From Bacteroidales bacterium UBA1216 (GTDB taxonomy: Bacteria; Bacteroidota; Bacteroidia; Bacteroidales; Paludibacteraceae), in assembly GCA_002309255.1 (NCBI GenBank), contig DBXI01000076.1, positions 30,946 to 94,945 of the forward strand: a DNA stretch of 64,000 nucleotides, given 5' to 3'. The first letter of the stretch is position 1. Each line of letters begins with the position of its first letter. The position numbers and the translations under genes were made by a program. Shown here one piece after another: positions 39,561 to 60,668 of this stretch. The notes under the pieces are model-generated. The model was not told the DNA's origin. It ran no database searches and saw only the letters and a program-made list of their open reading frames with translations.

Positions 39561-39586
39561 CGTACAGCACAACAAAGAGAAAGGAA

Positions 39587-40087
39587 ATGGCTCAGTGGTT
39601 TAAGTACATAGGGATTTTACTGTTACTCCTGTTCATGCAGGTGTTCCTGCTGGATAATTTACACTGGCTGGGGTTGGTGCATCCTTATGTCTATCTGTGG
39701 GCTATCCTGCTCCTGCCGATGGAGTTGCCGCGCTGGATGCAGATGCTCTTAGGTGCTACCATCGGAATGTTGATAGACTGGTTCACACACTCACCCGGCA
39801 TACACATGGCCGGTTGTGTGATGATTGCATTCCTCAGACCGCAACTTGTGGCAAACTATGTGCAGGATGTTGATCGCCTGAAGGGGGCTATCACCATCAA
39901 TGTGCTGGGGTTGGGTAACTATCTGCGCCTGCTGGCCATTCTGATTGTGGTACATCATTCGATTGTATTCATGCTGGAGGCGTTCACGTTTTATCATCTG
40001 GGTTACACCTTACTGCAGATCCTGTTGAGCGGAGTATTCAGCTTTGCGTTCATCCTGATGCTTGAATACGTACGGAAGAATACTTGA
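39587..40087 (+). CDS. mreD: rod shape-determining protein MreD
   Basis: 166-aa polytopic membrane protein between mreC and mrdA. Confidence 0.75.
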   Translation: MAQWFKYIGILLLLLFMQVFLLDNLHWLGLVHPYVYLWAILLLPMELPRWMQMLLGATIGMLIDWFTHSPGIHMAGCVMIAFLRPQLVANYVQDVDRLKGAITINVLGLGNYLRLLAILIVVHHSIVFMLEAFTFYHLGYTLLQILLSGVFSFAFILMLEYVRKNT

Positions 40088-40126
40088 CCGTATAGATGCT
40101 TGTCTTTCTGTTAATTGCCTGTGATC

Positions 40127-41968: not shown

Positions 41969-43419
41969 CCAGAAACAGTATTATATCCGGTATAGATTGG
42001 TGGACGATAGCCCTCTTTCTTGTTATTGCCCTATTCGGCTGGCTGAACGTGTATGGTGCCAGTTACACCTTTGATCAGACTTCGCCGTTCGACCTGAGTA
42101 ACCGCGCCGGCAAGCAGTTCTTGTGGTTCGGAATAGCATGCGTGCTGGGGCTCGCTGTGCTGTTCATAGAGGGACGAACGCATGAGGTTATTGCGTATCT
42201 ACTGTATGCGTTCTGGATAGTGGTGCTGCTTATTACGCCTTTCTTGGCGCATGACACCAAGGGATCAATGTCTTGGATTGATCTTGGGCCGCTTAAGTTC
42301 CAGCCTGCGGAGTTGGCTAAGATGATCACCGCCTTGGCTTTAGCTAAGTACATGGGGCGTTTTGATTATCGTGTGCGCTCATGGCGCGACTTGGTGGTTC
42401 CGTTTGTGCTGCTGGCTTTGCCTGCGGGAATCATCATGATCTGGCAGAGCGAAACAGGTTCAGCACTGGTGTTTGCTTCGTTCCTGATCATGTTCTACCG
42501 CTTCGGAATGTCAGGGTATGTGCTGACAGGTGGATTGTCGTTTGCGCTACTGTTCATCCTATCTATACGTTTCGGCGAGGTACCTTTGCCATGGGGCTCG
42601 GGTAGTGTGGGCGTGCTGTTGTGCTATTTGGTACTTCTGGCAGTGATCGTGGGATTCATGTTACTACATGAGCGGGATTTGAAGAGCACACTTATCCTTT
42701 GCTGTGTTGTTATTTTGGCCTATGCAGCAGGGCTGATTGTTAATATATGGTGGACTGTGAATTTCAACCTTGTTTCTCTCATCGCCCTGGTGCTTATCCT
42801 TCTGTACTTCACGGGAGTTGTACTCTACCGCCGCCGTTTTATCATGTTACTTGTAACAGGATACACGGTGCTTGCGTTGCTGTTCTGCGAGGCATGTACG
42901 ATTGTGTTCAACAAGGTGCTGCAGCCCCACCAACGCACGCGTATAGAGGTGCTGCTTGGCCTGAAGGATGATCCTGCAGGTGCCGGCTATAACGTCAATC
43001 AGTCACTCATAGCTATCGGTTCGGGACAGTTCACCGGAAAGGGTTTCTTGAAGGGAACACAAACCAAGCTTCGCTTTGTGCCTGAGCAGGACACTGACTT
43101 CATCTTCTGTACCGTAGGCGAAGAGTGGGGCTTCTTGGGGTCAGCAGGTTTACTAATTGTGTATCTGATCTTTATCTTGCGACTGATTTATATAGCAGAA
43201 CGTCAGCGCGACAACTACTCACGAATCTATGCTTATTGTGTGGCGGGTATCTTCTTCTTCCATTTGACGATTAATGTGGGGATGGTGCTTGGTTTGTTGC
43301 CCGTGATAGGTATTCCACTGCCGTTCTTCAGTTACGGCGGTTCATCGATGATCAGTTTCACGCTGTTGCTGGCAATTCTTCTCCGTTTGGATGCCGAACG
43401 ACTCAGCAAGTGGCAGTAG
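41965..43419 (+). CDS. rodA: SEDS peptidoglycan glycosyltransferase RodA
   Basis: FtsW/RodA/SpoVE motifs (PAELAKM, EQDTDFIF, PLPFFSYGGSSM). Follows mrdA with a 4-nt overlap. Confidence 0.88.
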   Translation: MTRNSIISGIDWWTIALFLVIALFGWLNVYGASYTFDQTSPFDLSNRAGKQFLWFGIACVLGLAVLFIEGRTHEVIAYLLYAFWIVVLLITPFLAHDTKGSMSWIDLGPLKFQPAELAKMITALALAKYMGRFDYRVRSWRDLVVPFVLLALPAGIIMIWQSETGSALVFASFLIMFYRFGMSGYVLTGGLSFALLFILSIRFGEVPLPWGSGSVGVLLCYLVLLAVIVGFMLLHERDLKSTLILCCVVILAYAAGLIVNIWWTVNFNLVSLIALVLILLYFTGVVLYRRRFIMLLVTGYTVLALLFCEACTIVFNKVLQPHQRTRIEVLLGLKDDPAGAGYNVNQSLIAIGSGQFTGKGFLKGTQTKLRFVPEQDTDFIFCTVGEEWGFLGSAGLLIVYLIFILRLIYIAERQRDNYSRIYAYCVAGIFFFHLTINVGMVLGLLPVIGIPLPFFSYGGSSMISFTLLLAILLRLDAERLSKWQ

Positions 43420-44982: not shown

Positions 44983-47235
44983 GTGGTAACGGTTGACGTT
45001 ATTCTGCCCCTTGCCATCGCGGACATCTATACGTATAGTGTTCCCGAAGGTATGTTATGTCCGCCGGTGGGCGTACGTGTCTTGGTGCCCTTGGCTCGCA
45101 AGACGATCACGGGGGTGGTGTATCGTCAGCACCTTGACGACAGTACTGCTTCCGGGCAAATACATGTTGCTCTCAGGGATATCATTGAGGTGCTGGATGA
45201 GCAGCCGATAGTACTGCCATCGCAACTGTCGCTATGGCGTTGGATGGCGGATTACTACCTCTGCACCCTGGGCGAGGTGATGGCGGCTGCTCTGCCGGCA
45301 CGGCTGTTGGATAACGACTATATAGCGCGTACTGAGGTGTATATCTCCCTCCATCCACGCTTCACGGATGTGGAGCAGTTGCAACCCATTTTCAATTCGC
45401 TTCACCGCGCCCCCAAGCAACTCAAGTTACTGGAGTATTTCCTCGATTTATCCGATGCGTTCGACAACGCGCCGCATCCGGTCGATCAGCGGCAACTCAT
45501 CGAACAATCCGGCGAATCCACAGCTGTGCTGCGCACACTGATAGAGAAAAACATTCTCTGCGCCTCTCACGAGGTTGTGAGCCGCATACCCTCCTATGAC
45601 ACTGATATTGAATCGGCTCATCCGCTGACACCTCAACAGCAGCGTGCTGCAGAAGAGATAGATACGGGCTTTGCTGATGCGAAGGTTTGCCTGCTGCACG
45701 GTGTTACATCCAGCGGCAAGACTGAGGTGTATATCCACCTGATCCGTCAAATGCTGGATCAAGGAAAACAAGTGCTGTACCTTGTACCAGAGATCGCTTT
45801 GACCACACAATTGACCGACAGACTGAAGCGGGTCTTCGGTAAGCAATTGGGAGTATATCATTCGCGCTTCAGTGATATGGAGCGCGTGGAGATATACAAG
45901 GATCTGCTTACCTCTCAGGAGGCCAAGGTTATTCTCAGCGCCCGCTCGGGAGTGTTCCTGCCGTTTAGCCATCTGGGTTTGGTGATTGTTGATGAGGAGC
46001 ATGACAGCTCGTACAAACAACAGGATCCTGCACCACGGTATCATGCGCGTTCTGTAGCGGTTGTGATGGCTAAAGCCGCTGCGGCGAACGTCTTGTTGGG
46101 TACAGCTACGCCGGCAATAGAGACCTATTATAACGCTAAGAATAGCAAGTACCGACTGGTAGAGATGCATGAACGGTATGCAGGACTCAGTCTGCCGCAT
46201 ATCACCATGGTGGATCTCAAGCAACAGTATCACCGCAAAGAGATGTACGAGCATTTCTCTGATCCGCTGGTGGAACGAATGCGTGAGCAGTTGGCGCTAG
46301 GTAAACAAATCATCATCTTCCAGAATAGGCGTGGGTATGCGCCGTATATCAGTTGCAGGCACTGCGGATTTGTGCCCAAGTGCGGAAATTGCGATGTGAG
46401 CCTCACGTATCATAAGCGTGCGCGCTCGCTGGTGTGTCACTATTGTGGTCACACGATCAGCGCACCGGATTGTTGCCCCAATTGCGGTGGCGAATGGCAT
46501 GAATTTGGCGTTGGTACCGAGCGCGTAGAGGACGAAGTAATCGGCATTTTCCCTGGTGCGCGTGTGGCGCGTATGGATCTGGATACAACGCGCAACAAGA
46601 AAAGCCACCAGCGTCTGATCAATACCTTTGCACGCCATGAGGTAGATATACTGATCGGTACGCAGATGGTGACTAAAGGTCTGCATTTCAATGACGTATC
46701 GCTCGTTGCAGTGCTGAATGCCGACACGATGATGCAGTCGCCGGACTTCCGCAGCTATGAGCGAGCCTTTCAGATGCTGGAGCAGGTGGCTGGTCGTGCA
46801 GGCAGAACAGGAGCGCAGGGCGAAGTGGTCATCCAATCGTTTCAGCCGGATAATCCGTTATATACCTACCTGCAAAATCACGATTACTCCGTGTTCTATG
46901 CCGAACAGGTCAAGGAGCGCCGCATGTTCCGTTTTCCGCCCTTCTACAGGCTGATTGTCCTTACTCTCAAACACCGAGACTATTCGCGACTGGATACAGC
47001 GGCACGCGAGCTGAGTCAGCGGTTGCAAGCTGTATTCGGCAACCGCTGTTCAGGTGTGATTATTCCGTCTGTATCGCGCGTGCAAAACATGCACATCCGT
47101 ACTATCCGCTTGCGTGTAGAGACTGCTGCATCCTTTGCACAGGCCAAGAGCCTTGTTATGCAGCACGTGCAACTGGTGCAGTCGCTGCCTAATTGCAAAG
47201 GTGTGATTGTTCAGCCGGATGTTGACCCGATGTAA
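44983..47235 (+). CDS. priA: primosomal protein N' (replication restart helicase PriA)
   Basis: VDVILPLAI...YTYSVP N-terminus, Walker A GVTSGKTEVY, DEEHD, Cys-rich zinc region (CRHCGF..CGNC..CHYCG..CPNCG). GTG start. Confidence 0.93.
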   Translation: MVTVDVILPLAIADIYTYSVPEGMLCPPVGVRVLVPLARKTITGVVYRQHLDDSTASGQIHVALRDIIEVLDEQPIVLPSQLSLWRWMADYYLCTLGEVMAAALPARLLDNDYIARTEVYISLHPRFTDVEQLQPIFNSLHRAPKQLKLLEYFLDLSDAFDNAPHPVDQRQLIEQSGESTAVLRTLIEKNILCASHEVVSRIPSYDTDIESAHPLTPQQQRAAEEIDTGFADAKVCLLHGVTSSGKTEVYIHLIRQMLDQGKQVLYLVPEIALTTQLTDRLKRVFGKQLGVYHSRFSDMERVEIYKDLLTSQEAKVILSARSGVFLPFSHLGLVIVDEEHDSSYKQQDPAPRYHARSVAVVMAKAAAANVLLGTATPAIETYYNAKNSKYRLVEMHERYAGLSLPHITMVDLKQQYHRKEMYEHFSDPLVERMREQLALGKQIIIFQNRRGYAPYISCRHCGFVPKCGNCDVSLTYHKRARSLVCHYCGHTISAPDCCPNCGGEWHEFGVGTERVEDEVIGIFPGARVARMDLDTTRNKKSHQRLINTFARHEVDILIGTQMVTKGLHFNDVSLVAVLNADTMMQSPDFRSYERAFQMLEQVAGRAGRTGAQGEVVIQSFQPDNPLYTYLQNHDYSVFYAEQVKERRMFRFPPFYRLIVLTLKHRDYSRLDTAARELSQRLQAVFGNRCSGVIIPSVSRVQNMHIRTIRLRVETAASFAQAKSLVMQHVQLVQSLPNCKGVIVQPDVDPM

Positions 47236-47239
47236 GTTC

Positions 47240-48607
47240 ATGAATGTAAAGCTGCATATAAACACAACTATCCTGCGGGAGTACTTACCATACTATCGTC
47301 GGAATCTTATTGTGGCTTTTCCCGTCATGCTCACGCAGCTTGGCGCTGCATTGGTCGGCCTGATTGATACGATCATGGTAGGTCACTACAGTACGACTGA
47401 TCTGGCCGCGGTGAGTTTTGCTAATGGTGTGTTCTTTACTATCATGGTGTTTGCTATGGGTGCTGTGATGGGCGTGACGCCACTGGTGGGACAAGCCTAT
47501 GTACAGCACAAAGATGAACGCGTGGCGGCACTGCTGCTTAATGGGTTGTGGTTCACGTTGCTTGTAGGAGGAGTGACCTGCGCGGTGCTGGGTATATGTG
47601 TGCCGCTGATGGACAATATGGGACAAGATCCTGAAGTGGTGAAGGCTGCACGTCCGTACCTGATAACGCGCATCATAGGTATGCTGCCTTTCTTGCTGTT
47701 CTGCCTAGAGAAGCAGTTCATGGAGGGTTTGGGTAATACTATCGTAGCAATGATCGTCACCGCGGGCATCAATCTGCTGAATATATTGCTTAACTGGGTG
47801 TTTATCTTCGGTCATTGGGGTGCGCAGGCTATGGGGGCGGCGGGCGCAGGTTTGGCTACGATGGTTGCATGGATACTGCTGCCAATAGTGTACCTTATAT
47901 GCATCTTGCGCCGTGAAAAGTGGCGTAAGTATCTGGTGCTATGTCGTGACGGATTATCCGATCGCGTCATGGTGCGCGAGCTCTTTCGGGTAGGTACACC
48001 CATCGGCTTGCAGACCACGATGGAAACGGTGCTCTTCACCTTGTCGTTCATCATGGTGGGGTGGATCAACAAGGAAGCTCTGGCAGCCCATCAAGTCACG
48101 AACCAGATAGCTGATTTTGCATTCATGCTCTCGCTGGGCATCAGCTCTGCCACCACCATACGCGTATCGCACCAATACGGCTTGAGGGATATGCATGCCA
48201 CCAAGATGGCGGCAAACGCCAGTGTTCATCTCATCCTGCTGATGAATACCATAGGTGCGTTGCTGATGATCAGCTTGAGGCACTACTTGCCCTATCTCTT
48301 CACTAATGACGAAGTGGTGGTGGCACTTGCTTCGCAGCTACTGATCTTCGCCGGCCTGCTCCAGTATGCTGATGGCCTGCAATGTGTTGGTGCTGGGATG
48401 CTACGTGGTGTGACGGATGTGAAGGCTCCGATGTGGATAACGGTCTTCACCTACGTGGTGGTAGCACTTCCGCTCGGATATATACTTATGTTCCCCGCCG
48501 ATTTAGGTGCTGTAGGTATGTGGATCAGTTTTGTTGTGGCACTCACCATTGCCGCCATTGCTTTCCACCTCCGCTTCCGCTGGCTCTTCCGTAACTTGCA
48601 TCGATAG
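47240..48607 (+). CDS. MATE family efflux transporter
   Basis: 12 TM segments with a NorM-like N-terminus (LIVAFPVMLTQLGAALVGLIDTIMVGH). The ATG at 47240, just after the priA stop, is preferred. Confidence 0.88.
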   Translation: MNVKLHINTTILREYLPYYRRNLIVAFPVMLTQLGAALVGLIDTIMVGHYSTTDLAAVSFANGVFFTIMVFAMGAVMGVTPLVGQAYVQHKDERVAALLLNGLWFTLLVGGVTCAVLGICVPLMDNMGQDPEVVKAARPYLITRIIGMLPFLLFCLEKQFMEGLGNTIVAMIVTAGINLLNILLNWVFIFGHWGAQAMGAAGAGLATMVAWILLPIVYLICILRREKWRKYLVLCRDGLSDRVMVRELFRVGTPIGLQTTMETVLFTLSFIMVGWINKEALAAHQVTNQIADFAFMLSLGISSATTIRVSHQYGLRDMHATKMAANASVHLILLMNTIGALLMISLRHYLPYLFTNDEVVVALASQLLIFAGLLQYADGLQCVGAGMLRGVTDVKAPMWITVFTYVVVALPLGYILMFPADLGAVGMWISFVVALTIAAIAFHLRFRWLFRNLHR

Positions 48608-48611
48608 AACA

Positions 48612-49409
48612 ATGCATGAGTTAGTAGAATATATTGTGTCCGCCCTGACGCCGTGTTACCCGCCCGGCGAGGCGCGTGCAATGGCGTATTGGATTATAGA
48701 GGAGAAGACGGGACTCAATCGCTTTCAAGCGCATATGCATCCGGGGGCGATAGAGATACCTGATCTTGACGTAATCATCGAGCAATTGCGCAACAATGTG
48801 CCCATTCAGTATGTTTTCGGTCATACAGAATGGCTGGGTATGAATCTGCAAGTCAGTCCTGCCACTCTCATCCCCCGTCCGGAAACAGCCGAGCTCATCA
48901 GCCTTGTCTCTGGTAGCCAGCCACGCATCCGCGTGCTGGATGTAGGCACCGGCAGCGGATGTATTGCGCTCGCGCTCAAGCAGCGGCATCCCAATTGGAC
49001 TGTACATGCGATGGATAACAGCATTGAGGCACTGACCATCGCACAAACCAATGCACAACGGCTAGGAATAGATGTCACGTTCATCCTTGCGGATATACTG
49101 CGCGATGATATATCGCAGTACGACCTTATCGTCTCCAATCCACCGTATATCCGTCCATCGGAGCGAGGTGCGATGACGCAGAATGCACTCATCTACGAGC
49201 CGTCCAGCGCGCTGTTTGTGCCCGAAGCCGATCCACTACTTTTCTATCGGCGTATGGCGCAACTGCACCGAGCACCCGAACTGTGGTTTGAGATCAACGA
49301 GAATCTCGGTGACGAGATGCTCTTGCTGATGCGGCAGTCCGGCTATGAGGCGCAGTGCTTCCGCGATATGTACGACAAGCAACGATTCATCCATGCTACG
49401 CAACGATAA
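48612..49409 (+). CDS. prmC: peptide chain release factor N5-glutamine methyltransferase
   Basis: VLDVGTGSGCIALAL SAM motif and VSNPPYI catalytic motif. The ATG at 48612 is preferred. Confidence 0.9.
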   Translation: MHELVEYIVSALTPCYPPGEARAMAYWIIEEKTGLNRFQAHMHPGAIEIPDLDVIIEQLRNNVPIQYVFGHTEWLGMNLQVSPATLIPRPETAELISLVSGSQPRIRVLDVGTGSGCIALALKQRHPNWTVHAMDNSIEALTIAQTNAQRLGIDVTFILADILRDDISQYDLIVSNPPYIRPSERGAMTQNALIYEPSSALFVPEADPLLFYRRMAQLHRAPELWFEINENLGDEMLLLMRQSGYEAQCFRDMYDKQRFIHATQR

Positions 49410-49414
49410 TAACA

Positions 49415-50038
49415 ATGAAGATAACAACTGAAGCCATAGTATTAGGGTTGCGCAAGCACTCCGACAAGATGTCGGTGCTACACGTGTATACCAAGACCGA
49501 AGGACGTCTTGCCCTACAGGTGTATGGCGTTCACGGTAAGCGCAAGATGCAGGCAGCTTACCAACCATTATCTATCGTTGAAGTCACCTACGATGCTCTT
49601 CCGGCACGTCCTTTTGTTGTCGCTTCATCCGTCGATCCGGTCTTTTTGTCAGAACAGGTATATGAGGATATACGTAAACAGACTGTCGCTCTGTTTGTCG
49701 CGGAGATACTGATGCTCACAGTGACGCATCCGATGCGCGATGAGACAATCTACGATTTTCTCGGTGCTTTCGTTCGCGAACTCAACGGAACTTCTACTCC
49801 AGAGAATCTTCATATTATCTTCATGATTAGACTGGCAGAGTTGTTGGGTATCGGCGTGCCGAAACTATCCGATGTAAGTGTCTACGCTAATATCGAAAAC
49901 CCGACTTTCACCACTGCATCGCTGTCGCGCACAACTCGACAAGACCTATTGTACCAACTATGTGGCTATTACTCAGAACACATCGAGTCTTTCCGTATGC
50001 CTAAATCTTTGGATATACTCATTGAAATATTCAATTGA
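49415..50038 (+). CDS. recO: DNA repair protein RecO
   Basis: N-terminal OB-fold pattern (TEAIVLGLRKHSDKMSVLHVYTKTEGR), about 207 aa. The ATG at 49415 is preferred. Confidence 0.82.
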   Translation: MKITTEAIVLGLRKHSDKMSVLHVYTKTEGRLALQVYGVHGKRKMQAAYQPLSIVEVTYDALPARPFVVASSVDPVFLSEQVYEDIRKQTVALFVAEILMLTVTHPMRDETIYDFLGAFVRELNGTSTPENLHIIFMIRLAELLGIGVPKLSDVSVYANIENPTFTTASLSRTTRQDLLYQLCGYYSEHIESFRMPKSLDILIEIFN

Positions 50039-50115
50039 ATTCATCCGACTCTGACGCTTGATAAAAAATATTGCAAAAAAATATGAAATTATTTGCAAAT
50101 GTCAAATATTTTTTG

Positions 50116-50123
50116 TAACTTTG
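50116..50123 (+). promoter_or_regulatory. -7 box TAACTTTG, with -33 TTTG at 50092-50095
   Basis: Canonical 20-nt spacing. The -33 sits in tatttgcaaatg. Lies 49 nt upstream of the ATG at 50172. Confidence 0.7.
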
Positions 50124-50171: not shown

Positions 50172-51641
50172 ATGCAACTATCAGAACTTTTCACACAAGC
50201 CACGGGCAAGCCGGCAGGCGAGCAGACTTCTCTGACCGCATCAGGGAGCAACCGGCGTTATTTTCGTATATGGAGCGAGGATAAGCAGGTGACGCTCATC
50301 GGCGTAGAAGGTACGTCGCATGACGAGAATCATGCTTTCCTTATGATGGCTGCGCACTTTGCCGGCCAGGAACTGAATGTTCCACGCGTGCTCGCTGTCA
50401 GTGAAGACGAGATGCTATATGTGCAGGAAGACCTGGGTAATACGCTGCTATTTGACTACATAGCCGAGGGGCGAAAAACCGGTGTGTTCTGCGAACGTGA
50501 GAAAGTGATGCTCAGAAAAACCATACGTGCGTTAGCACGCTTTCAACTGAAGGCGGCAGAGAATTTTGACTTCAACGTATGCTACCCGCAGCCGGAGTTC
50601 AACTTGAGGAGTATCCGCTGGGATCTGAACTACTTCAAGTACTGCTTCCTTAAAGCAACGGGGCTTGAGTTCCAGGAGGATAAACTGGAAAATGAGTTTG
50701 AGCGCCTGGCATATATCCTGCTTCAGCAGAAGCAGATGAATGCATTCATGTACCGTGACTTTCAGAGCCGTAACGTGATGGTTGTTGAAAGTCAAAAGTC
50801 GAAAGTCGAAAGCGATAGAGAGTTGGAGCCGTACTTCATCGACTTCCAGGGCGGAAGGCGTGGCCCCATATACTACGATGTCGCCTCGTTCCTGTGGCAA
50901 GCTAAGGCGAACTTCCACGATGAGCTGCGCCACGAACTCATCGAGGAATATCTAGATGAACTATGTAAGTACATAGAGGTTGACAAGAAGGAGTTCTACG
51001 CCACGCTCCGGCACTTCGTGCTCTTCCGGACGATGCAGGTGCTCGGTGCTTATGGCTTCCGCGGCTACTTTGAGAAGAAACCCCACTTCTTGCAATCTAT
51101 ACCCTTTGCTATCGAGAATCTCCGCCGTCTGCTCAAAGACGCAGCGGATGACTACCCTTACCTGATCGAGGTGCTGCACGAGATGACCGAGATGAAACAG
51201 TTCAAGGAGGTGAATGTTAGGAAACCGCTGGTGGTGAAGGCCTATTCGTTCTCGTTCAAGAAAGGAATCCCTGCGGATGATAGCGGCAATGGTGGCGGCT
51301 TTGTGTTCGATTGCCGTGCGGTGAACAACCCCGGTAAGTACGAGCGCTATAACCACTACACCGGTATGGATGAGCCGGTAATCAAGTTCCTGGAGGAGGA
51401 TGGCGAGATCTTCCCCTTCCTGGATGCAGCCTACCGATTGGTGGATGCCAGCGTCAAGCGCTACAAGGATCGTGGGTTCACCAGTCTCATGGTCAGCTTC
51501 GGCTGCACGGGCGGACAGCACCGCTCTGTTTATGCCGCCGAGAAGATGGCAGAACACATCAACGAGAAATTCGGCGTCGAGGTGCGCCTCATTCACCGCG
51601 AACAGAACGTGGAACGCACACTCCCGGAGAAAGAAAAATGA
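50172..51641 (+). CDS. fusion protein: AmgK-like anomeric sugar kinase (APH fold) + RapZ C-terminal-like domain
   Basis: N-terminal half has YRDFQSRNVMV (catalytic loop) and IDFQGGRRGPIYYDVASFL (DFQ..GP..YD motif of AmgK-type kinases). C-terminal half has FVFDCRAVNNPG and SFGCTGGQHRSVYAAEKMAEHI (RapZ/YhbJ C-domain signature GCTGGQHRSV). Confidence 0.75.
   Translation: MQLSELFTQATGKPAGEQTSLTASGSNRRYFRIWSEDKQVTLIGVEGTSHDENHAFLMMAAHFAGQELNVPRVLAVSEDEMLYVQEDLGNTLLFDYIAEGRKTGVFCEREKVMLRKTIRALARFQLKAAENFDFNVCYPQPEFNLRSIRWDLNYFKYCFLKATGLEFQEDKLENEFERLAYILLQQKQMNAFMYRDFQSRNVMVVESQKSKVESDRELEPYFIDFQGGRRGPIYYDVASFLWQAKANFHDELRHELIEEYLDELCKYIEVDKKEFYATLRHFVLFRTMQVLGAYGFRGYFEKKPHFLQSIPFAIENLRRLLKDAADDYPYLIEVLHEMTEMKQFKEVNVRKPLVVKAYSFSFKKGIPADDSGNGGGFVFDCRAVNNPGKYERYNHYTGMDEPVIKFLEEDGEIFPFLDAAYRLVDASVKRYKDRGFTSLMVSFGCTGGQHRSVYAAEKMAEHINEKFGVEVRLIHREQNVERTLPEKEK
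50787..50814 (+). repeat. in-frame heptad array GAAAGTC|AAAAGTC|GAAAGTC|GAAAGCG inside the kinase CDS
   Basis: Encodes ESQKSKVES, located between the catalytic loop and the DFQ motif. Confidence 0.9.
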
Positions 51642-51643
51642 CA

Positions 51644-51671
51644 AAATTGCAAATGATTAAATTGTAAATGA
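51644..51671 (+). repeat. heptad array AAATTGC|AAATGAT|TAAATTG|TAAATGA
   Basis: Fills the spacer after the kinase stop. The last unit contains the ATG at 51668. Confidence 0.85.
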
Positions 51672-52414
51672 AGTCGATGATTTTTGCGGCGGGGCTGGGT
51701 ACGCGGCTCAAGCCTTTCACCGATAACCATCCTAAGGCGCTGTTGCCGCTGGCAGGAAAGACCTTGCTGCAATGGCAAATAGATAAGTTGCTTGCGGTAG
51801 GGGTGACGGATATAGTGGTGAATGTGCACCACTTTGCCGATCAGATCGTCGAATATCTGCTGTCAAACAGCGGCTTCGGCAGCAGGCTGCAGATCAGCGA
51901 CGAACGCGAGGTGTTGCTTGAGACGGGGGGCGGATTGCTGAAGGCGGCAGAACTGCTTGAAGAGGATGAACCGGTGCTGGTGTGCAATGTGGATATATTG
52001 TCCAACGTCGACCTAGGGGCATTCATCGCCGCGCATCAAGCCGACGAACTGGCTACGATCGTTGTATCCAATCGCGAGACACAGCGGTACTTGCTGTTTG
52101 ATGAGGAGGGGAAACTGCAAGGGTGGACGAACAAGAAAACAGGTGAAGTGAGACCGGATGGATTAACGGTGAGTGGGCTGACGATGTTAGCATTCTCCGG
52201 TATGCAGATAGTATCACCGGCCTTCTTTAGAGAACTACGGAAAGTGAGAGAGGAGAAAGGGGATAAGTTCTCGCTCATTGATGCATATTTGTCAGTAGTA
52301 AGCCGGCAGGCAGGCGTCATCCGAGCCTACGTGCCGCAAGATTATAAGATGATGGATGTGGGAAAGATTGAACAACTCGGCGAAGCCGAACGATTTGCAG
52401 AAGAATTATGTTAG
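51668..52414 (+). CDS. sugar-1-phosphate nucleotidyltransferase (MurU-like)
   Basis: MIFAAGLGTRLKPFTDNHPKALLP is an NTP-transferase G-loop. 248 aa, adjacent to an AmgK-like kinase as in the AmgK/MurU salvage pair. Confidence 0.8.
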   Translation: MKSMIFAAGLGTRLKPFTDNHPKALLPLAGKTLLQWQIDKLLAVGVTDIVVNVHHFADQIVEYLLSNSGFGSRLQISDEREVLLETGGGLLKAAELLEEDEPVLVCNVDILSNVDLGAFIAAHQADELATIVVSNRETQRYLLFDEEGKLQGWTNKKTGEVRPDGLTVSGLTMLAFSGMQIVSPAFFRELRKVREEKGDKFSLIDAYLSVVSRQAGVIRAYVPQDYKMMDVGKIEQLGEAERFAEELC

Positions 52415-53334
52415 GAGTAATTATCAATCCCAAATCGGGTAAAAAAGCTTACCGTCGGCAACGAATGTACCTGTGGAACCTATTGCGCGAGCGCCATATA
52501 CCTTATGAGTTCCGCGTAACCAAATATGCTGCTCATGCTACGGAGTTGGCGCGCGAACTGGTAGAGGATTTTGGCTGCGACGAGATCCTTGTTATAGGCG
52601 GCGATGGCACATTGTCAGAAACACTGAACGGAATCATGCGCGCCAAGATCTCTGCAGAGCAACGTAGGAAGATCCAACTCGGTCTGATGCCTCGTGGCAC
52701 AGGCAACGATTGGGGCAGGTACTGGAACCTGACGAAGAACTACCGTGATGCTATTGAGCGTTTCCTGTCGGGCGAAGGCCATCCGCTGGATGTGGGATGC
52801 GTCACGTACTGGCGCAATCATATTGAGCACCATCGCTACTTCATCAACTCCGTAGGATTCGGTGTCGATCCGCTGTGTTGCCAGAAAGCTGAGAAACTCA
52901 AGTACTACCTCGGCTCACATCACGTGAACTACCTGTTCGGATTGATCGGAGCTATCATGGAGCAGAAACCGATACCCATGCAACTGGTGGTGGATGGAGA
53001 GGTGCTGGTGCACGAAGCCTTGTTCACCATGAATGTAGGCAATGGCCCATATTCAGGAGGTGGTATCAAGCAGAATCCTGATGCCGACCCACAGGACGGC
53101 GTATTCCATGGGATGTTCGTGTGCAAGCCTACACTCATACAAATCATCCGTGCATTGCCTAACCTATTCAATGGCAAACTGACCGAACTTCCGTTCATCC
53201 ATGCCTATGTGGGCAAGGATATCCGTATGGAGACCGAAGAACATTTGCTCTTTGAGGCTGATGGCATATTGCAGAATGTGATGGGACCATGTGAGGTGCA
53301 TTGTATCCATCATGCTTTACAATTTAAAGTATAG
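52408..53334 (+). CDS. diacylglycerol/lipid kinase family protein (YegS/BmrU-like)
   Basis: IINPKSGKK..., ILVIGGDGTLSE DAGK catalytic motif, 308 aa. 7-nt overlap with the upstream gene. Confidence 0.82.
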   Translation: MLGVIINPKSGKKAYRRQRMYLWNLLRERHIPYEFRVTKYAAHATELARELVEDFGCDEILVIGGDGTLSETLNGIMRAKISAEQRRKIQLGLMPRGTGNDWGRYWNLTKNYRDAIERFLSGEGHPLDVGCVTYWRNHIEHHRYFINSVGFGVDPLCCQKAEKLKYYLGSHHVNYLFGLIGAIMEQKPIPMQLVVDGEVLVHEALFTMNVGNGPYSGGGIKQNPDADPQDGVFHGMFVCKPTLIQIIRALPNLFNGKLTELPFIHAYVGKDIRMETEEHLLFEADGILQNVMGPCEVHCIHHALQFKV

Positions 53335-53375
53335 AAAGGTGAAAGTTGAAAGGTGAAAATTGAAAGGTGGAAGAG
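53334..53375 (+). repeat. 6 x 7-bp array GAAAGGT|GAAAGTT|GAAAGGT|GAAAATT|GAAAGGT|GGAAGAG
   Basis: Starts on the last base of the lipid kinase stop codon and contains the candidate rsmH GTG start (53367). Confidence 0.95.
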
Positions 53376-54269
53376 GTTGTGTATCATATTCCTGCGATGC
53401 TGAATGAGGTGCTTGATGGCCTGCATATCGATGCCGACCGCGAGCAGGTGTTCGTTGATGCCACGTTTGGCGGCGGCGGACATAGCCGGGGCATCATAGA
53501 GCGCATGAGCAGTCGTTCGCGGCTCTTCGGTATAGATCAGGATCTGGATGCTTACGCCAACTGCATCAGCGATGAGCGGTTCACGTTCGTGAGAAGTAAC
53601 TTCCGCTACATTGCTAACTTCATGGATTACTATGGCGTAGAGCAGGTGGATGGTATATTGGCTGACTTGGGTGTAAGTTTTCATCACTTCGATGCTGGCG
53701 AACGAGGCTTCTCTTTCCGCTTCGATGCGCCGCTTGATATGCGCATGAACAGGCGACAGAAACTATCGGCAGCCGATGTTATTAATAACTACAGCGAGGA
53801 AGATTTGGCGCGCGTAATGTATCTATACGGTGAGTTCCGCGACTCACACGCCATGGCGCGGCAGATCGTCAGCCGCCGCACTCTGCAGGCGATTCTCACC
53901 ACGCAGCAGTTGCTCGATAGTGTCCGTCTAAAGGACAAACAAGATGCAGCACGACTCTTCCAAGCCCTGCGCATAGAGGTTAACGATGAGCTCGGCGCCC
54001 TGCGCGAACTCCTGCAGGCCGCAACACAACTGCTCGCGCCTGGCGGACGACTGGTGATCCTGACATACCACTCATTGGAGGATCGCATCGTCAAGAACTT
54101 TATGCGCTCGGGTAACACCGAAGGATCAATAGAGAAAGACTTCTACGGGAATATACTGACCCCCTTCAAGGTGATAGAGAAAGGACGCAGCGCCTCTGCC
54201 GATGAGGTGGAGCGAAATCCTCGCGCACGATCTGCCAAGCTCCGCGTAGCAGAACGCTTAAATGACTAA
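53367..54269 (+). CDS. rsmH: 16S rRNA (cytosine1402-N4)-methyltransferase
   Basis: YHIPAMLNEVL, DATFGGGGHS, DLGVSFHHFD and SLEDRIVKNF are RsmH/MraW motifs. Start is uncertain: GTG at 53367 or in-frame GTG at 53379. The last codons (AAT GAC TAA) lie in the TAAATGACTAAAT motif. Confidence 0.9.
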   Translation: MEEVVYHIPAMLNEVLDGLHIDADREQVFVDATFGGGGHSRGIIERMSSRSRLFGIDQDLDAYANCISDERFTFVRSNFRYIANFMDYYGVEQVDGILADLGVSFHHFDAGERGFSFRFDAPLDMRMNRRQKLSAADVINNYSEEDLARVMYLYGEFRDSHAMARQIVSRRTLQAILTTQQLLDSVRLKDKQDAARLFQALRIEVNDELGALRELLQAATQLLAPGGRLVILTYHSLEDRIVKNFMRSGNTEGSIEKDFYGNILTPFKVIEKGRSASADEVERNPRARSAKLRVAERLND

Positions 54270-54311
54270 ATGGTCAAATACATGATAAAATAGTAAATGT
54301 CTAAATGAGGA

Positions 54312-54632
54312 ATGGATAAACGATTAAGTTTGCTACAAAAGATCCTGAACGGTGACATCTTCCGCGCCGAACGGGTTTCGCGCCACTATCGACTGCTGGC
54401 GCTGATTGGTATATACATCTTCCTGAGCATACTGATGGGCTTCGTGTCCGAATGGCAGTACGTGCGTATCGGCGCGCTGAAGAAAGAGTTGCAAGATACT
54501 CGCAACGAGGAACTGACCATCAGCTCGGAGCTGGTGAACAGTACGCGGCAGTCGGCCGTGCTGCGTGCACTCAAAGACAATGGCAGCAAGCTCCGCGAAG
54601 CAAATACACCTGTGATTGTCGTAAATGACTAA
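54312..54632 (+). CDS. FtsL-like cell division protein
   Basis: 106 aa with a single TM (LLALIGIYIFLSILMGF) followed by a short coiled coil. Canonical position between rsmH and ftsI. Confidence 0.75.
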   Translation: MDKRLSLLQKILNGDIFRAERVSRHYRLLALIGIYIFLSILMGFVSEWQYVRIGALKKELQDTRNEELTISSELVNSTRQSAVLRALKDNGSKLREANTPVIVVND

Positions 54633-54646
54633 ATAGTAAATATATT

Positions 54647-56485
54647 GTGCCTGATAACCGACAAAATACTGTCTTCCGTTTCGCGCTGGTGTTCCTGCTT
54701 ATCGCAGCAGGCTTTGTGATTGTGCTGGCTTACATCATCCGCATCCAGTGGTTTGAACGTGACAAGTGGCTGGGTACGGACTCCAGCCGCAAGCCCAATG
54801 TAACCGTAATTGCGCCCCAGCGCGGTAACATCCTTGACCACGAAGGTCGTCTGCTCGCCGGCAGCATACCCGGGTACTATGTGTATATGGATACACGTGT
54901 GCCCGCACTCCATCAAGGCGGAGACACACTCTTCTACCGATATGTCGATAGTGTGGCTATCGGCCTGAACCGCATCTTGCCCGATGCAGACGGTGCGGCC
55001 GGGTACAAGAGGAAGATGATCAAGTCGTTCAACCATAAGAATGGCAAGAATCTGCGGGGGGTGAAACTGGAAAATGGTACGGTTCTCAAGCTCTGCCCCA
55101 ACCGTGTGTCGTATATCCAGAAAAGGGAAATAGAGAAGATCCCGCTGTTCAATAGGGGGTACTACAAGTCCGGCCTGCACTTTAAGGATGCTCCGCAGCG
55201 TAAGAAACCGTTCGGTTCGCTCGCATCGCGTACCATAGGTAATATCCTCAGCAACGGAAAAGGTAACACCGGGTTGGAGAAGACCTTTGAGGATGACTTG
55301 CATGGCATAGACGGTTTAGCGGTGCGCGAACGCATGGGCGGCAAGTGGGAGAACGTGCCGGTGCGCGAGGCTATCAACGGCTACGATCTGGTCACTACGC
55401 TCGATGCCAACCTGCTGGATATAACCGAGACCGCCCTGCGCGGATGCCTAGAGCGCACACAAGCTGACTGGGGCTGCTGCATACTCATGGAGGCAAACAG
55501 CGGAAAGATCCGTGCTATCTGTAACCTCGACCGCAGTTCGGATGGCACATACAACGAGAGAGCCAACCACGCCGTTACGCGCGTTGAGCCGGGATCAACG
55601 TTCAAGACGATCTCGATGATGGCGGCACTCGATGACGGCAAGGTGAATCTGACAGACAGTTTTGAGGTATATAAGAAAGGCTGGACGTACCTCAGTTCCT
55701 CGCACACCGACGCCCATAAGTTCGACACGGTATTCACGTTGCGCAGTGCACTGGCTGTGTCGTCCAATATTGCCTTCGCTAAGATGGTTACTCAAAGTTA
55801 CGACAAGAAAGCATCGAAGTTCGTGGATAAACTCCAGTCGATGGGCATCTGCGATAGTGTCTATTCGGAGATCCCGGGCGCTCAAAAGCCGCGTGTTGAC
55901 GTGCCAAAGGATGCCGTAACACTTTCAAAGATGGCGTACGGCTACTACGTCGAGCTCACCCCAATGCAGATTCTCACGTTTTACAATGGGATTGCCAACA
56001 ACGGCCGAATGATTCGCCCCTATTTGGTAGAAAAGGTCATGGATGGCGACGAGGTCATCCGCCGCTTTGACACCGAGACAATCAAGAGCAGTATGTGCAG
56101 CAAAAGCACACTGGAGGATGTAAAGGTGGCTTTGCACGATGTAGTGTGGGACAACAAGCTCGGTACCGCGTCCCGACAGCCTTGGGGCGCGCCCAAAGCG
56201 CAGTCGAAGCTCGTTCCCATAGCCGGAAAGACAGGTACAGCGCAGATCCTACGTAACGGCAAGTACCAGACACGCGAACACCGGATGACTTTCGTCGGAT
56301 ATTTCCCCGAGGACAAACCGCTGTATTCCTGCATCTGTATGGTTGAGTTCCCGAAGAACTATGGCTATTACGATGCTGGTATGGATTGCGGATTGGTAGT
56401 CCGCCAGATTGCCGAGAAGACCATCGTCTACTCCGGACACTATGTGATAAAAGGTGACTCATTAGTTTACGAAAAGAATAAATAA
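54647..56485 (+). CDS. ftsI: penicillin-binding protein 3-like division transpeptidase
   Basis: N-terminal TM, PBP dimerisation domain, STFK (PGSTFKT), SSN (VSSNIAF) and KTGT (AGKTGTAQ). GTG start, with no nearby ATG. Confidence 0.88.
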   Translation: MPDNRQNTVFRFALVFLLIAAGFVIVLAYIIRIQWFERDKWLGTDSSRKPNVTVIAPQRGNILDHEGRLLAGSIPGYYVYMDTRVPALHQGGDTLFYRYVDSVAIGLNRILPDADGAAGYKRKMIKSFNHKNGKNLRGVKLENGTVLKLCPNRVSYIQKREIEKIPLFNRGYYKSGLHFKDAPQRKKPFGSLASRTIGNILSNGKGNTGLEKTFEDDLHGIDGLAVRERMGGKWENVPVREAINGYDLVTTLDANLLDITETALRGCLERTQADWGCCILMEANSGKIRAICNLDRSSDGTYNERANHAVTRVEPGSTFKTISMMAALDDGKVNLTDSFEVYKKGWTYLSSSHTDAHKFDTVFTLRSALAVSSNIAFAKMVTQSYDKKASKFVDKLQSMGICDSVYSEIPGAQKPRVDVPKDAVTLSKMAYGYYVELTPMQILTFYNGIANNGRMIRPYLVEKVMDGDEVIRRFDTETIKSSMCSKSTLEDVKVALHDVVWDNKLGTASRQPWGAPKAQSKLVPIAGKTGTAQILRNGKYQTREHRMTFVGYFPEDKPLYSCICMVEFPKNYGYYDAGMDCGLVVRQIAEKTIVYSGHYVIKGDSLVYEKNK

Positions 56486-56522
56486 TCCATCAGCTATTAT
56501 TGGCTGATCAAACAACACACAT

Positions 56523-57974
56523 ATGCTACTATCTAACCTCCTTCAAGCCATTGAGCCGCTACGCGTCATAGGTCGTACGGATGTTGATGTTCACGCTATC
56601 CAGTTTGACTCCCGCAAGGTCGAGCCCGGTGACCTCTTTGTTGCCCAAGTCGGCACAGCGGTTGATGGCCACACCTTCATTGAGTCCTGCATAAACAGAG
56701 GCGTCTCCGTGGTAATCCTAGACAATATAGCGTACTTAAACGAGACTAAACTGGGCGTAACTTATGTCTTGGTCAAGAGTTCCGATGAGGCACTCGGTCG
56801 CTTGGCGCATCAGTGGTACGGCTGCCCGAGTGAGAAACTCACGCTCGTAGGTGTCACCGGCACCAACGGTAAGACAACCATCGCCACTCTTCTCTATAAT
56901 CTGGTGCGTGCCATGGGCTATAAGGCCGGATTGCTCTCCACGGTTATCTACTACGTTGATGGACAGGCTTTTCCATCCACCCACACCACGCCTGACGCAC
57001 TCGCCCTGAATGCTCTGCTCGCACAGATGGTAGAGGTGGGCTGCGAATATGCCTTCATGGAGGTAAGCAGTCACTCTATCGCACAGGAGCGCATAGCCGG
57101 ACTACAGTTCAATGGCGCATTGTTCACCAACCTCACGCGCGACCATATAGACTACCATAAGACCTTCGACAACTACCGCGACACGAAGAAACGCCTATTC
57201 GACAACCTGCCCAAGAGCGCTTTTGCTATCACCAATGCCGATGACAAGAACGGCCTTATTATGACGCAGAACACCCGCGCTAAGGTCTATACGTACTCCA
57301 CGCAGAGCATGGCTGACCACCACGGCAAGATACTCGAGGAAGGCTTCGATGGTATGTTGCTCAGTATTGACAACCAGGAGGTGTTCGTCCCCCTTGTTGG
57401 CCGATTTAATGTATCCAACCTGCTCTGTATTTACAGCGCTGCACTCTGCCTCGGTTTCGACAAACTTGACGTCCTGCGCGTACTCAGTGCCCTCAAGCCT
57501 GTCAACGGTCGCTTTGAGACCATCCGCTCCCCCAAAGGCTGGACAGCCATCGTTGATTACGCCCACACACCTGATGCCGTGGACAACGTCATCCGCACCA
57601 TACGCGAGATAAAGAAAGCGGGCACTAAACTCATAACTGTAGTAGGTTGCGGCGGTAACCGCGACAAAGGCAAGCGCCCAATGATGGCACAGATCGCCAA
57701 GCGCGGTAGCGAGCAGTTGATTTTGACGAGCGATAACCCCCGCGACGAAGAACCTCGAGACATATTGAATGACATGAAAGCCGGTCTCACCGAAGAGGAG
57801 CTGCACAGCACATTGGTGATAGAAGATCGTGCTGCGGCTATTCAGACTGCCTGCACCCTGGCGCAGGCAGGCGATGTGATCCTTGTTGCCGGCAAGGGAC
57901 ATGAGGACTATCAGATCATCAAGGGCGTGAAACACCACTTCGACGACCACGAACAAGTACGCAAATACATCTGA
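56523..57974 (+). CDS. murE: UDP-N-acetylmuramoyl-L-alanyl-D-glutamate--2,6-diaminopimelate ligase
   Basis: GVTGTNGKTT P-loop, Mur ligase domains, DNPR motif (TSDNPRDE). Confidence 0.93.
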   Translation: MLLSNLLQAIEPLRVIGRTDVDVHAIQFDSRKVEPGDLFVAQVGTAVDGHTFIESCINRGVSVVILDNIAYLNETKLGVTYVLVKSSDEALGRLAHQWYGCPSEKLTLVGVTGTNGKTTIATLLYNLVRAMGYKAGLLSTVIYYVDGQAFPSTHTTPDALALNALLAQMVEVGCEYAFMEVSSHSIAQERIAGLQFNGALFTNLTRDHIDYHKTFDNYRDTKKRLFDNLPKSAFAITNADDKNGLIMTQNTRAKVYTYSTQSMADHHGKILEEGFDGMLLSIDNQEVFVPLVGRFNVSNLLCIYSAALCLGFDKLDVLRVLSALKPVNGRFETIRSPKGWTAIVDYAHTPDAVDNVIRTIREIKKAGTKLITVVGCGGNRDKGKRPMMAQIAKRGSEQLILTSDNPRDEEPRDILNDMKAGLTEEELHSTLVIEDRAAAIQTACTLAQAGDVILVAGKGHEDYQIIKGVKHHFDDHEQVRKYI

Positions 57975-58036
57975 TTACATAGCCAAATGATTAAATAAAT
58001 GGCCAAATGGTAAATGACTAAATTGTAAATTACTTT

Positions 58037-59308
58037 ATGTTATATTCACTTTTTACACATTTTAGCGACGTGCTTGGTGCACGTTTGTTCACGTACATCT
58101 CTTTCCGCGCGATTATGGTGGCGGTGATTGCCTTCGTTGTGAGCGTGTGGTTCGGGAAATTCTTCATCGCACTGCTTAAACGCCAGAACATCTCAGAACA
58201 GCAGCGCGACGAGAAGATCGATCCGTTCAATGTGGCTAAGAAAGGAGTACCCACCATGGGCGGCGTGGTGCTGATCGTGGCGACCGTAGTGCCTGTGCTG
58301 ATCATGGGCAACCTGAGTAACATCTACCTCTGGTTGATGCTTATCACCACCCTAATTCTTGGCGCATTGGGATTTGCAGATGACTACATCAAGACCTTCA
58401 AGCATAACAAGGAGGGACTGAACGGCTGGGTGAAGATCATCGGACAGGTGACATTGGGACTGATTGTCGGCCTCACGCTGCGTTACGCACCGATGACAAC
58501 GATGAACGAGACTGTTACCGTGCACTACGAAAATAACGTCCGCGTGGTGGAGAAGTCTCCGGAAGTAAAATCCACAAGGACTACTATTCCTTTTGTTAAG
58601 AACCATAACGCCAACTATGCGGATATGTTCTCTTTCCTCGGTGACGAGATGAAGTATCGTGCCGGTTGGATCTTCTTTGTGCTGCTAACAGTGTTCGTGG
58701 TAGCGGCGGTGAGCAACGGCGCAAACCTGAACGACGGGATGGACGGCATGTGTGCGGGTAATAGTGCACTCATTGGTGTTGCACTCATTGTGCTGGCCTA
58801 TGTGTCGGGTAACACGATGCTGGCCGATTACTTCGATGTAATGTATATACCGGGCAGCGAAGAACTGGTGGTGTTCCTCGGAGCATTCGTAGGCGCGCTG
58901 GTAGGCTTCCTGTGGTTCAACGGCTTCCCTGCACAGATCTTCATGGGCGACACGGGCAGCCTGACCATCGGTGGCATCATTGGCGTGTGCGCCGTGATCA
59001 TCCACAAAGAACTGCTCGTTCCTATCCTATGCGGTGTATTCCTGATGGAGAGTGTATCAGTCATTCTGCAGACGCAGGTATATAAGTTCAGCAAGCGTCG
59101 CGGCCAACGTGTGCGCGTGTTCAAGCGCGCGCCGCTGCACGACCATTTCCGCACCTCGGTGGAGCAGGTGCTCAAGAATGATCCTACCTGTCGCATCCTG
59201 TGCAAAGGCAAGAGTGAACTGCACCATGAGACGAAGATCGTCCTCCGCTTCTGCATCGTAACACTCCTGTTGGCTGCATTTACAATACTAACCCTAAAAA
59301 TCCGTTAA
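58037..59308 (+). CDS. mraY: phospho-N-acetylmuramoyl-pentapeptide-transferase
   Basis: PTMGG, NLNDGMDGM (NxxDGxDG) and GDTGSL motifs. Polytopic membrane protein. Confidence 0.95.
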   Translation: MLYSLFTHFSDVLGARLFTYISFRAIMVAVIAFVVSVWFGKFFIALLKRQNISEQQRDEKIDPFNVAKKGVPTMGGVVLIVATVVPVLIMGNLSNIYLWLMLITTLILGALGFADDYIKTFKHNKEGLNGWVKIIGQVTLGLIVGLTLRYAPMTTMNETVTVHYENNVRVVEKSPEVKSTRTTIPFVKNHNANYADMFSFLGDEMKYRAGWIFFVLLTVFVVAAVSNGANLNDGMDGMCAGNSALIGVALIVLAYVSGNTMLADYFDVMYIPGSEELVVFLGAFVGALVGFLWFNGFPAQIFMGDTGSLTIGGIIGVCAVIIHKELLVPILCGVFLMESVSVILQTQVYKFSKRRGQRVRVFKRAPLHDHFRTSVEQVLKNDPTCRILCKGKSELHHETKIVLRFCIVTLLLAAFTILTLKIR

Positions 59309-59310
59309 CA

Positions 59311-60657: not shown

Positions 60658-60668
60658 TTCATGCAACA

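Follow-up and report, generated by a model that had tools for sequence, protein, structure and literature searches.

Why would a bacterium attach RapZ's C-terminal domain to a kinase for cell-wall amino sugars? This question is raised by a gene of Bacteroidales bacterium UBA1216, which lies at positions 50172–51641 (+ strand) of a 64,000-nucleotide stretch of contig DBXI01000076.1, here called the window. An earlier note on this DNA had described the gene as an AmgK-like N-acetylmuramic acid (MurNAc)/N-acetylglucosamine (GlcNAc) kinase fused to a RapZ C-terminal-like domain, and had proposed that the added domain might bind RNA or sense glucosamine 6-phosphate (GlcN6P), as RapZ does in enterobacteria such as Escherichia coli. 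We think it probable that the gene and its neighbor form a Bacteroidota-type AmgK/MurU pathway for the salvage of uridine diphosphate (UDP)–MurNAc, in which the C-terminal domain would bind some phosphorylated amino-sugar metabolite and, most probably, regulate the salvage enzyme in cis. The parts of the fused gene and its partner are given below. Counts of invariant or conserved residues, here and throughout, come from a family alignment of 110 sequences that are 38–67% identical to the window protein.

50172–51641, + strand: whole open reading frame, AmgK-like kinase plus RapZ C-terminal-type domain (translation, PF01636 and PF22740, AlphaFold model)
50172–51161, + strand: N-terminal APH-fold sugar-kinase domain, AmgK-like, amino acids (aa) 1–330 (PF01636, AmgK models, 3csv)
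50754–50774, + strand: kinase catalytic loop RDFQSRN, aa 195–201; R195, D196, Q198, and N201 invariant in all 110 sequences
50838–50849, + strand: metal-binding Asp motif IDFQ, aa 223–226; D224 and Q226 invariant
51162–51227, + strand: variable helical linker, aa 331–352 (alignment and model)
51228–51605, + strand: RapZ C-terminal-type domain, aa 353–478 (PF22740, RapZ structures, Foldseek)
51282–51299, + strand: Gly-rich loop SGNGGG, aa 371–376, inserted with respect to E. coli RapZ (alignment gap)
51309–51338, + strand: DCR...NPGK segment, aa 380–389; D380 corresponds to RapZ D182 and R382 to R184, with G388 in place of H190
51504–51527, + strand: phosphate-binding loop CTGGQHRS, aa 445–452, equivalent to RapZ C247–S254 and of the form C-x5-R-S (alignment, model)
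51600–51638, + strand: non-conserved C-terminal tail EQNVERTLPEKEK; median net charge 0 across the family, no conserved positions
51668–52414, + strand: MurU-like sugar-1-phosphate uridylyltransferase (NCBIfam MurU models), 26 nt downstream of the fused gene

The fusion of a kinase with a RapZ C-terminal domain is real. A single uninterrupted open reading frame runs from the ATG at 50172 to the stop at 51641 and encodes a product of 489 aa (about 57 kDa), which contains all of the peptides quoted in the earlier note (YRDFQSRNVMV, IDFQGGRRGPIYYDVASFL, KAYSFSFKKGIP, FVFDCRAVNNPG, and SFGCTGGQHRSVYAAEKMAEHI). The note had suggested searching with APH and RapZ C-terminal models and comparing a predicted structure with the C-terminal domain (CTD) of RapZ, and these comparisons bear out its description. 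Pfam assigns aa 23–261 to the APH domain (PF01636; E=3.6e-13) and aa 355–478 to PF22740, RapZ's C-terminal domain (E=3.5e-32). In NCBIfam, the AmgK models NF045759 and NF045698 are the sole families matched by the N-terminal half (E=2.9e-15 and 8.6e-11). The RapZ model NF003828 aligns with the C-terminal half over model positions 150–277 only (97 bits against a cut-off of 244), in agreement with the view that a sugar kinase here replaces the N-terminal P-loop domain of RapZ. Indeed, no RapZ-type N-terminal P-loop (Walker A/B) nucleoside triphosphatase (NTPase) domain was found by Pfam, NCBIfam, or Foldseek, and both Pfam and Foldseek assign the N-terminal half to the APH fold.

Comparisons with known structures give the same picture. 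In a sequence search of the PDB, aa 334–476 align with residues 140–277 of E. coli RapZ 5o5o (E=2e-16), the RapZ structures 5o5o, 5o5q, and 5o5s are all matched by the C-terminal domain at E ~1e-16, and the N-terminal half finds the APH-fold protein 3csv (E=1e-9). A profile built from the 110 family members strengthens both assignments, with E=8e-29 for RapZ and E=7e-32 for 3csv. A structure model from the single sequence was set aside (predicted local distance difference test, pLDDT, 38.7) in favor of an alignment-based AlphaFold model of the fused protein, which reached a pLDDT of 95.2 and a predicted template modeling score (pTM) of 0.87. With this model, Foldseek has APH-fold kinases as its top hits and also matches crystal and cryo-EM structures of RapZ (5o5q, 5o5o, and 8b0j); the C-terminal domain matches RapZ with a Foldseek probability of 1.00, and 3csv is the best fold and profile match of the kinase half. 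The two domains are joined by a linker (aa 331–352) in which no position is conserved at 90% or more (mean entropy 3.35 bits) and in which the model shows helices at 329–339 and 342–345.

Both halves are conserved across the family. The catalytic loop and the metal-binding Asp that characterize the APH/protein-kinase-like fold are intact in the kinase. Across the family, 14 of its 311 positions (4.5%) are invariant versus 16 of 124 (12.9%) in the RapZ-C half, and mean pairwise identity is 0.39 for the kinase versus 0.50 for the RapZ-C domain, the latter being higher in 96% of sequence pairs. Judged by these alignments, the added domain is under stronger constraint than the kinase to which it is attached. 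Since it evolves more slowly than the kinase, we take it to be functional and not a relic.

What has been kept so strictly is, above all, a pocket. We mapped residues to E. coli RapZ by HMMER alignment and took their roles from the literature (PMC5737377, PMC9841335). In RapZ, the CTD in isolation binds GlcN6P specifically, with a dissociation constant of 10 nM (PMC7073468), and the pocket equivalent to the one discussed here binds sulfate or malonate and also contacts RNA backbone phosphates (PMC5737377, PMC9841335). Seven residues of the pocket loop, the counterparts of RapZ C247, T248, G249, G250, H252, R253, and S254, are conserved in 110/110 sequences, and the AlphaFold model shows a strand (438–445), the loop, and a helix (451–467). 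The equivalents of RapZ R184, N188, P189, and H276 (the last being H475 here) are likewise invariant, and D380, which stands for RapZ D182, is Asp in 109/110. Among the six residues of the sulfate/malonate and putative GlcN6P pocket of RapZ (H190, T248, G249, H252, R253, and C247), five are invariant and H190 is the exception.

The rim of the pocket, on the other hand, has a character of its own. C381, R382, N386, P387, and G388 are each found in 110/110 sequences, with Cys381 standing at the position of RapZ V183. The stretch SGNGG, part of the SGNGGG loop, lies opposite a five-residue gap in E. coli RapZ (PDB sequence alignment). This insertion follows the pattern S-G-N/H-G-G-G and is family-specific and near-invariant (G374 and G375 in 109/110, G376 in 110/110). 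GlcN6P sensing, which the earlier note had carried over from RapZ, cannot simply be transferred to such a domain: the ligand's specificity for GlcN6P cannot be assumed, and the ligand probably differs from that of RapZ, because the pocket has been remodeled through the change of H190 to Gly, the SGNGGG insertion, and the additional invariant Cys381.

The features with which E. coli RapZ holds RNA have largely disappeared. Its RNA binding is abolished by mutating K270 together with K281, R282, and K283 (PMC5737377). The family alignment holds no counterpart of the basic RNA-binding tail that contains the last three of these (consensus RxRxKNxQxRHRTxxKRK), K270 is replaced by V, I, or L, R238 by F, and K251 by Q in 79/110 sequences, and K194 is mostly E. 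Some residues along the RNA path are kept, with K or R at the position of K170 in 97/110 and at that of R196 in 90/110, besides the invariant R184. The domain is also near-neutral, its median isoelectric point being 7.8 (6.5 in the window protein) versus about 9.3 for the E. coli CTD, a value computed with what we take to be the last seven residues of the E. coli protein. With the basic tail and K270 gone and the other lysines and arginines mostly lost, the suggestion of an RNA-binding module did not hold up, and a role of the domain as an RNA or RNase adaptor seems unlikely. From this combination of an intact phosphate loop with lost RNA determinants and a remodeled pocket rim, we take the domain to be one that would bind a phosphorylated amino-sugar metabolite and act in cis.

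The partner gene points to the pathway in which this would take place. As the earlier note had recognized, the next gene is MurU-like: the NCBIfam MurU models (NF045761 / NF045697) are the top match of 51668–52414 (E=3e-36), and the product also matches PF00483 (NTP_transferase; E=2.2e-17). We surveyed the 80 best of at least 596 loci by tblastn with the window neighbors and found a MurU-like gene in 66 of the 80, spread over several phyla; in 63 of these 66 it lies at most 300 nt downstream on the same strand. This makes a context of cell-wall amino-sugar salvage, also put forward by the note, plausible. When the closest other genes upstream and downstream were tallied by Pfam family (about 70 loci each), no third conserved gene such as mupP, anmK, murQ, or nagZ emerged, and no family was present in more than three loci. 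Since MurU is the sole neighbor to be conserved, the conserved unit is a two-gene module.

In some relatives, even the two genes have become one. Among ten unusually long relatives, eight (P0123, P0133, P0134, P0158, P0165, P0188, P0212, and P0221; 714–768 aa) are single polypeptides in which APH is followed by RapZ_C and then by NTP_transferase, so the RapZ-C domain is central. Another protein, P0137 (718 aa), carries a 3'-5' exonuclease domain (PF01612) N-terminal to the kinase–RapZ_C unit; this could be either a genuine fusion or two genes run together in gene calling.

The architecture is by no means restricted to the window. In a word-indexed protein search that scored up to 8000 candidates, PF22740 occurs together with PF01636 in each of the 120 matches listed; those that bear a name are called "phosphotransferase" and come from Paludibacteraceae or Bacteroidales. 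Among representatives clustered at 50% identity, 736 matches reach E<=1e-30, and the best 150 of these 736 are almost all full-length. In contigs taken from one genome per species, 596 of 600 pattern matches encode a relative, which puts the number of species with the fusion at 596 or more. Within the Bacteroidota, the 80 best loci cover Bacteroidales, Chitinophagaceae, Sphingobacteriales, and Prolixibacteraceae, with Phocaeicola plebeius, Alloprevotella rava, Prevotella, Muribaculaceae, and Tannerella sp. among the Bacteroidales carriers. The same 80 loci include Acidobacteriota/Terriglobales, Gemmatimonadota, Elusimicrobia, Ignavibacteriales, Opitutaceae, and Eremiobacteraceae. Given its presence in at least 596 species over several phyla, the architecture is a standard, ancient form and no one-off. 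Two bins labeled as Acutalibacteraceae (Firmicutes; L013 and L027) hold copies that are 50–55% identical to this Bacteroidales-type gene and have MurU downstream, which could reflect mis-binning or horizontal transfer.

It follows from these numbers that the fusion is abundant, and it is already catalogued by Pfam. The earlier note was not aware of any functional characterization of it. This part stands, as we found no paper that discusses the added domain, although the architecture itself is not rare. Our literature search returned no paper that names AmgK together with RapZ or describes an added domain in an AmgK, and among RapZ papers from 2022 onwards none was found on such fusions.

Taken together, the module would probably operate as follows. 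The N-terminal APH-fold domain would phosphorylate MurNAc, and possibly GlcNAc, at the anomeric position, after which the MurU-like enzyme would convert the sugar-1-phosphate to UDP-MurNAc and thus feed peptidoglycan synthesis without MurA/MurB. The pocket formed by C445-TGGQH-R451-S452 with R382 and H475 would hold a phosphorylated amino-sugar metabolite, and the domain would most likely be an allosteric sensor through which kinase flux is matched to the precursor pool. The identity of substrate and ligand and the direction of regulation are what we infer here.

Several points weigh against this proposal. Neither enzyme reaches the equivalog cut-offs of its best models, the N-terminal half scoring 56.2 bits against 550 and 41.7 against 500 with the two AmgK models and the MurU-like neighbor 125 bits against 250; the substrate specificity of both is therefore a predicted one. 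The pocket residue H190 is Gly in 110/110 sequences, with Arg or Lys adjacent. The AmgKs of proteobacteria function without a RapZ-C domain, and the fused type of the T. forsythia AmgK used in experiments, to which we return below, is a probable one. Finally, a domain of 124 residues in which 16 polar or Gly positions are invariant looks less like a sensor than like an active site, homologs of RapZ have been reported to show phosphatase activity (cited in PMC7525490), and a catalytic role of RapZ C247 has been raised as possible (PMC9841335).

The last of these points lead directly to a rival explanation that we consider possible, if rather unlikely, namely that the RapZ-C domain has an enzymatic activity of its own. 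As a phosphatase or phosphotransferase for a sugar phosphate, with a Cys-dependent phosphate loop (C-x5-R-S), it would add a third step beside AmgK and MurU; it may be a MurNAc-6P phosphatase (the role of MupP) or perform a 6-to-1 phospho-shuffle on MurNAc-6P/GlcNAc-6P. In the model, the invariant C445-x5-R451-S452 sits on a strand–loop–helix, the arrangement of Cys-phosphatase P-loops, and is accompanied by the invariant C381, R382, N386, H450, and H475 and the near-invariant D380, in a domain that is more constrained than the kinase and that stands between two enzymes in the triple fusions. According to PMC7525490, YvcJ is described as an NTPase and phosphatase and the Xanthomonas homolog HpaP as an ATPase and phosphatase, and the authors who found RapZ C247S inactive speak of a specialized catalytic function that it may have and of a ligand that could be "chemically transformed" (PMC9841335). 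However, turnover is not known from any RapZ-CTD, and for that of E. coli GlcN6P is a tightly bound ligand (PMC7073468). Homology to Cys-phosphatases was not found either: a permissive Pfam scan of six C-domains returned PF22740 alone and no Cys-phosphatase family, and for the C-terminal half both the family profile against the PDB and Foldseek found nothing but RapZ. As CX5R is also not mentioned in the RapZ/YvcJ literature that we found, it is the motif itself on which this explanation stands.

A mainly structural role, in which the domain di- or tetramerizes or serves as a docking platform that joins AmgK and MurU for channeling without any small-molecule ligand, strikes us as improbable. 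The RapZ-CTD does dimerize by itself and needs D182 for this self-interaction (PMC7073468), a residue whose equivalent D380 is so well kept, and YvcJ is in physical contact with GlmR, which is active as a uridylyltransferase (PMC7525490, PMC10128056). Furthermore, the domain directly precedes MurU in the triple fusions, and the high pTM of the model suggests a fixed packing against the kinase. Yet such a role leaves the absolute invariance of seven phosphate-loop residues and of H475 across phyla unexplained, and since GlmR and MurU are not homologous, the docking analogy has no basis in homology. Very improbable, finally, is that a regulatory RNA is bound here in the manner of RapZ from enterobacteria, so that glmS or further genes of the cell wall would come under a post-transcriptional control linked to salvage. 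Its homology to the RNA-binding RapZ-CTD and the partly retained RNA path (K170, R184, and R196 positions) speak for it; the missing counterparts of K281, R282, and K283, the hydrophobic residue at K270 (PMC5737377), and the near-neutral charge speak against it. The tail consensus is not kept in YvcJ homologs either, and YvcJ is without evidence of RNA binding (PMC7525490). The 64-kb window contains no Rfam family at the gathering threshold, GlmY and GlmZ included, and no transfer RNA gene. GlmY and GlmZ are not known from outside Enterobacterales.

The favored proposal, a salvage kinase with a metabolite-binding regulator in cis, can be set beside systems that are already known. The AmgK/MurU pathway has been documented in Pseudomonas, Legionella, Caulobacter, Tannerella, and Bacteroides (PMC7670621, PMC8054146, PMC13046382). 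Like the window gene, the AmgK genes of Pseudomonas putida and P. aeruginosa (and also of Legionella and Caulobacter) encode an APH-fold protein with the catalytic motifs and are followed by a uridylyltransferase gene. In those bacteria, AmgK acts as an anomeric MurNAc/GlcNAc kinase and MurU as a MurNAc-alpha-1-P uridylyltransferase. The proteobacterial AmgK, however, is a single-domain protein of about 38–39 kDa (PMC11957156), whereas the window protein has 57 kDa with its RapZ-C domain, and its activity is a predicted one. Closer at hand, AmgK and MurU of T. forsythia, which belongs to Bacteroidia like the window bacterium, convert N-acetylmuramic acid (NAM) to UDP-NAM in E. coli, in the so-called Tf-KU strains (PMC10941766, PMC13041923). 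Proteins of Tannerella sp. are 58% identical to the window protein, combine PF01636 with PF22740, and have a MurU-like gene downstream; judging from these, the characterized T. forsythia AmgK probably belongs to the fused family. Tanf_08375, tried as a candidate for the T. forsythia AmgK, was rejected as it is MurT.

With E. coli RapZ (YhbJ), the RNase E adaptor for GlmZ and sensor of GlcN6P, the window protein shares a homologous C-terminal domain and a tie to amino-sugar and cell-wall precursor metabolism. The differences are nonetheless considerable: RapZ has a P-loop NTPase N-domain, a basic RNA tail, H190, and a basic CTD, whereas the window protein has an unrelated APH kinase, no basic tail, a Gly, and a near-neutral domain, as well as the extra SGNGG stretch and Cys381. 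Being without the P-loop N-domain and the RNA tail, the window protein is not a RapZ.

A more instructive parallel may be found in Firmicutes, where yvcJ is syntenic with glmR (PMC7525490) and where GlmR has GlcNAc-1P uridylyltransferase activity (PMC10128056). The YvcJ–GlmR (YvcK) pair of Bacillus subtilis and Listeria resembles the window pair in that a nucleotide-using kinase-like domain with RapZ-C is encoded beside an enzyme that turns a sugar-1-phosphate into a UDP-amino sugar, and YvcJ, like the window protein, is without the RNA tail of RapZ. The partners themselves are non-homologous, with a P-loop domain versus an APH kinase and a CofD-like GlmR versus an NTP_transferase MurU. The parallel is our own and suggests that the ancestral role of RapZ-C may lie in the supply of UDP-amino sugars and not in RNA biology. 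One could go further, in a direction that we hold to be doubtful, and see in RapZ-C an ancient catalytic or substrate-handling phospho-sugar module and not, in the first place, a device for sensing or for holding RNA. Its ancestral role would be in UDP-amino-sugar salvage, with a kinase-type domain and a uridylyltransferase for sugar-1-phosphates as its constant partners, and its Cys-x5-Arg-Ser loop would perform a third step here. There would then be two non-homologous versions, APH kinase–RapZ_C with MurU and P-loop–RapZ_C (YvcJ/RapZ) with GlmR. The candidate third step would be the dephosphorylation of MurNAc-6P/GlcNAc-6P or a 6-to-1 phosphoryl shift, and the enterobacterial RNA adaptor activity would be a late add-on.

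We now turn to the surroundings of the module in the window, where other genes and motifs were located as follows.

37624–43419, + strand: elongasome operon, with mreB at 37624, mreC at 38685, PBP2 at 40115, and rodA at 41965
50092–50123, + strand: promoter-like motif of the Bacteroidota type (TTTG-N20-TAACTTTG), 49 nt upstream of the fused gene's start codon (consensus match only)
53367–61922, + strand: dcw genes rsmH, ftsL, ftsI, murE, mraY, murD, and ftsW
709–740, + strand: promoter-like motif (consensus match)
5815–5848, - strand: promoter-like motif (consensus match)
15593–15624, - strand: promoter-like motif (consensus match)
31680–31711, - strand: promoter-like motif (consensus match)
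36197–36228, + strand: promoter-like motif (consensus match)

The salvage module is flanked by the elongasome operon on one side and the dcw cluster on the other, all on the + strand. Adjacency to dcw was considered as a property of the family and rejected, as it is shared with only the closest relative (L001) among the 80 best loci, and it was therefore dropped as a functional clue for the family. Between the module and the dcw cluster lies a gene for a YegS/DAGK-type lipid kinase (52408–53334, + strand), which has 7 nt in common with the end of the MurU-like gene. This lipid kinase gene also adjoins the module in L001 (downstream) and in L014 (upstream) and in none of the other sampled loci.

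The promoter scan used what we take to be the Bacteroidota consensus. The pattern TTTG-N17-23-TAnnTTTG occurs six times in the window versus 0.68 expected by chance, and no further promoter-like motif was found on the + strand between the fused gene and position 64000, a hint that transcription may read through into murU, the lipid kinase gene, and perhaps the dcw genes. A scan of the window for sigma-70 promoters and terminators gave results at background level. Upstream of the fused gene, the open reading frames of MATE, prmC, and recO (47207–50038) overlap by 55–77 nt (48531 versus 48607; 49355 versus 49409), and their true starts are probably further downstream than listed.

The gene itself is unsurprising, and its value lies in what it may tell about the RapZ/YvcJ C-domain. 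RapZ and YvcJ are conserved across bacteria, and the role of their C-domain outside enterobacteria is a long-standing question on which the fusion offers a handle. In hundreds of species the RapZ-C domain is carried by an unrelated kinase whose pathway, MurNAc salvage, is known, and in some relatives the following enzyme is part of the same chain. This is a natural "Rosetta stone" that ties the domain to the chemistry of amino-sugar phosphates or UDP-sugars independently of small RNAs and that is tractable for finding a ligand or a reaction. The pathway concerned matters in its own right, since AmgK/MurU bypasses MurA, the target of fosfomycin, and sustains MurNAc auxotrophs such as Tannerella. 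The added domain could influence the behavior of peptidoglycan-labeling tools based on the T. forsythia AmgK, and an extra control or catalytic domain, if true, would affect how gut and oral Bacteroidota handle their cell-wall precursors.

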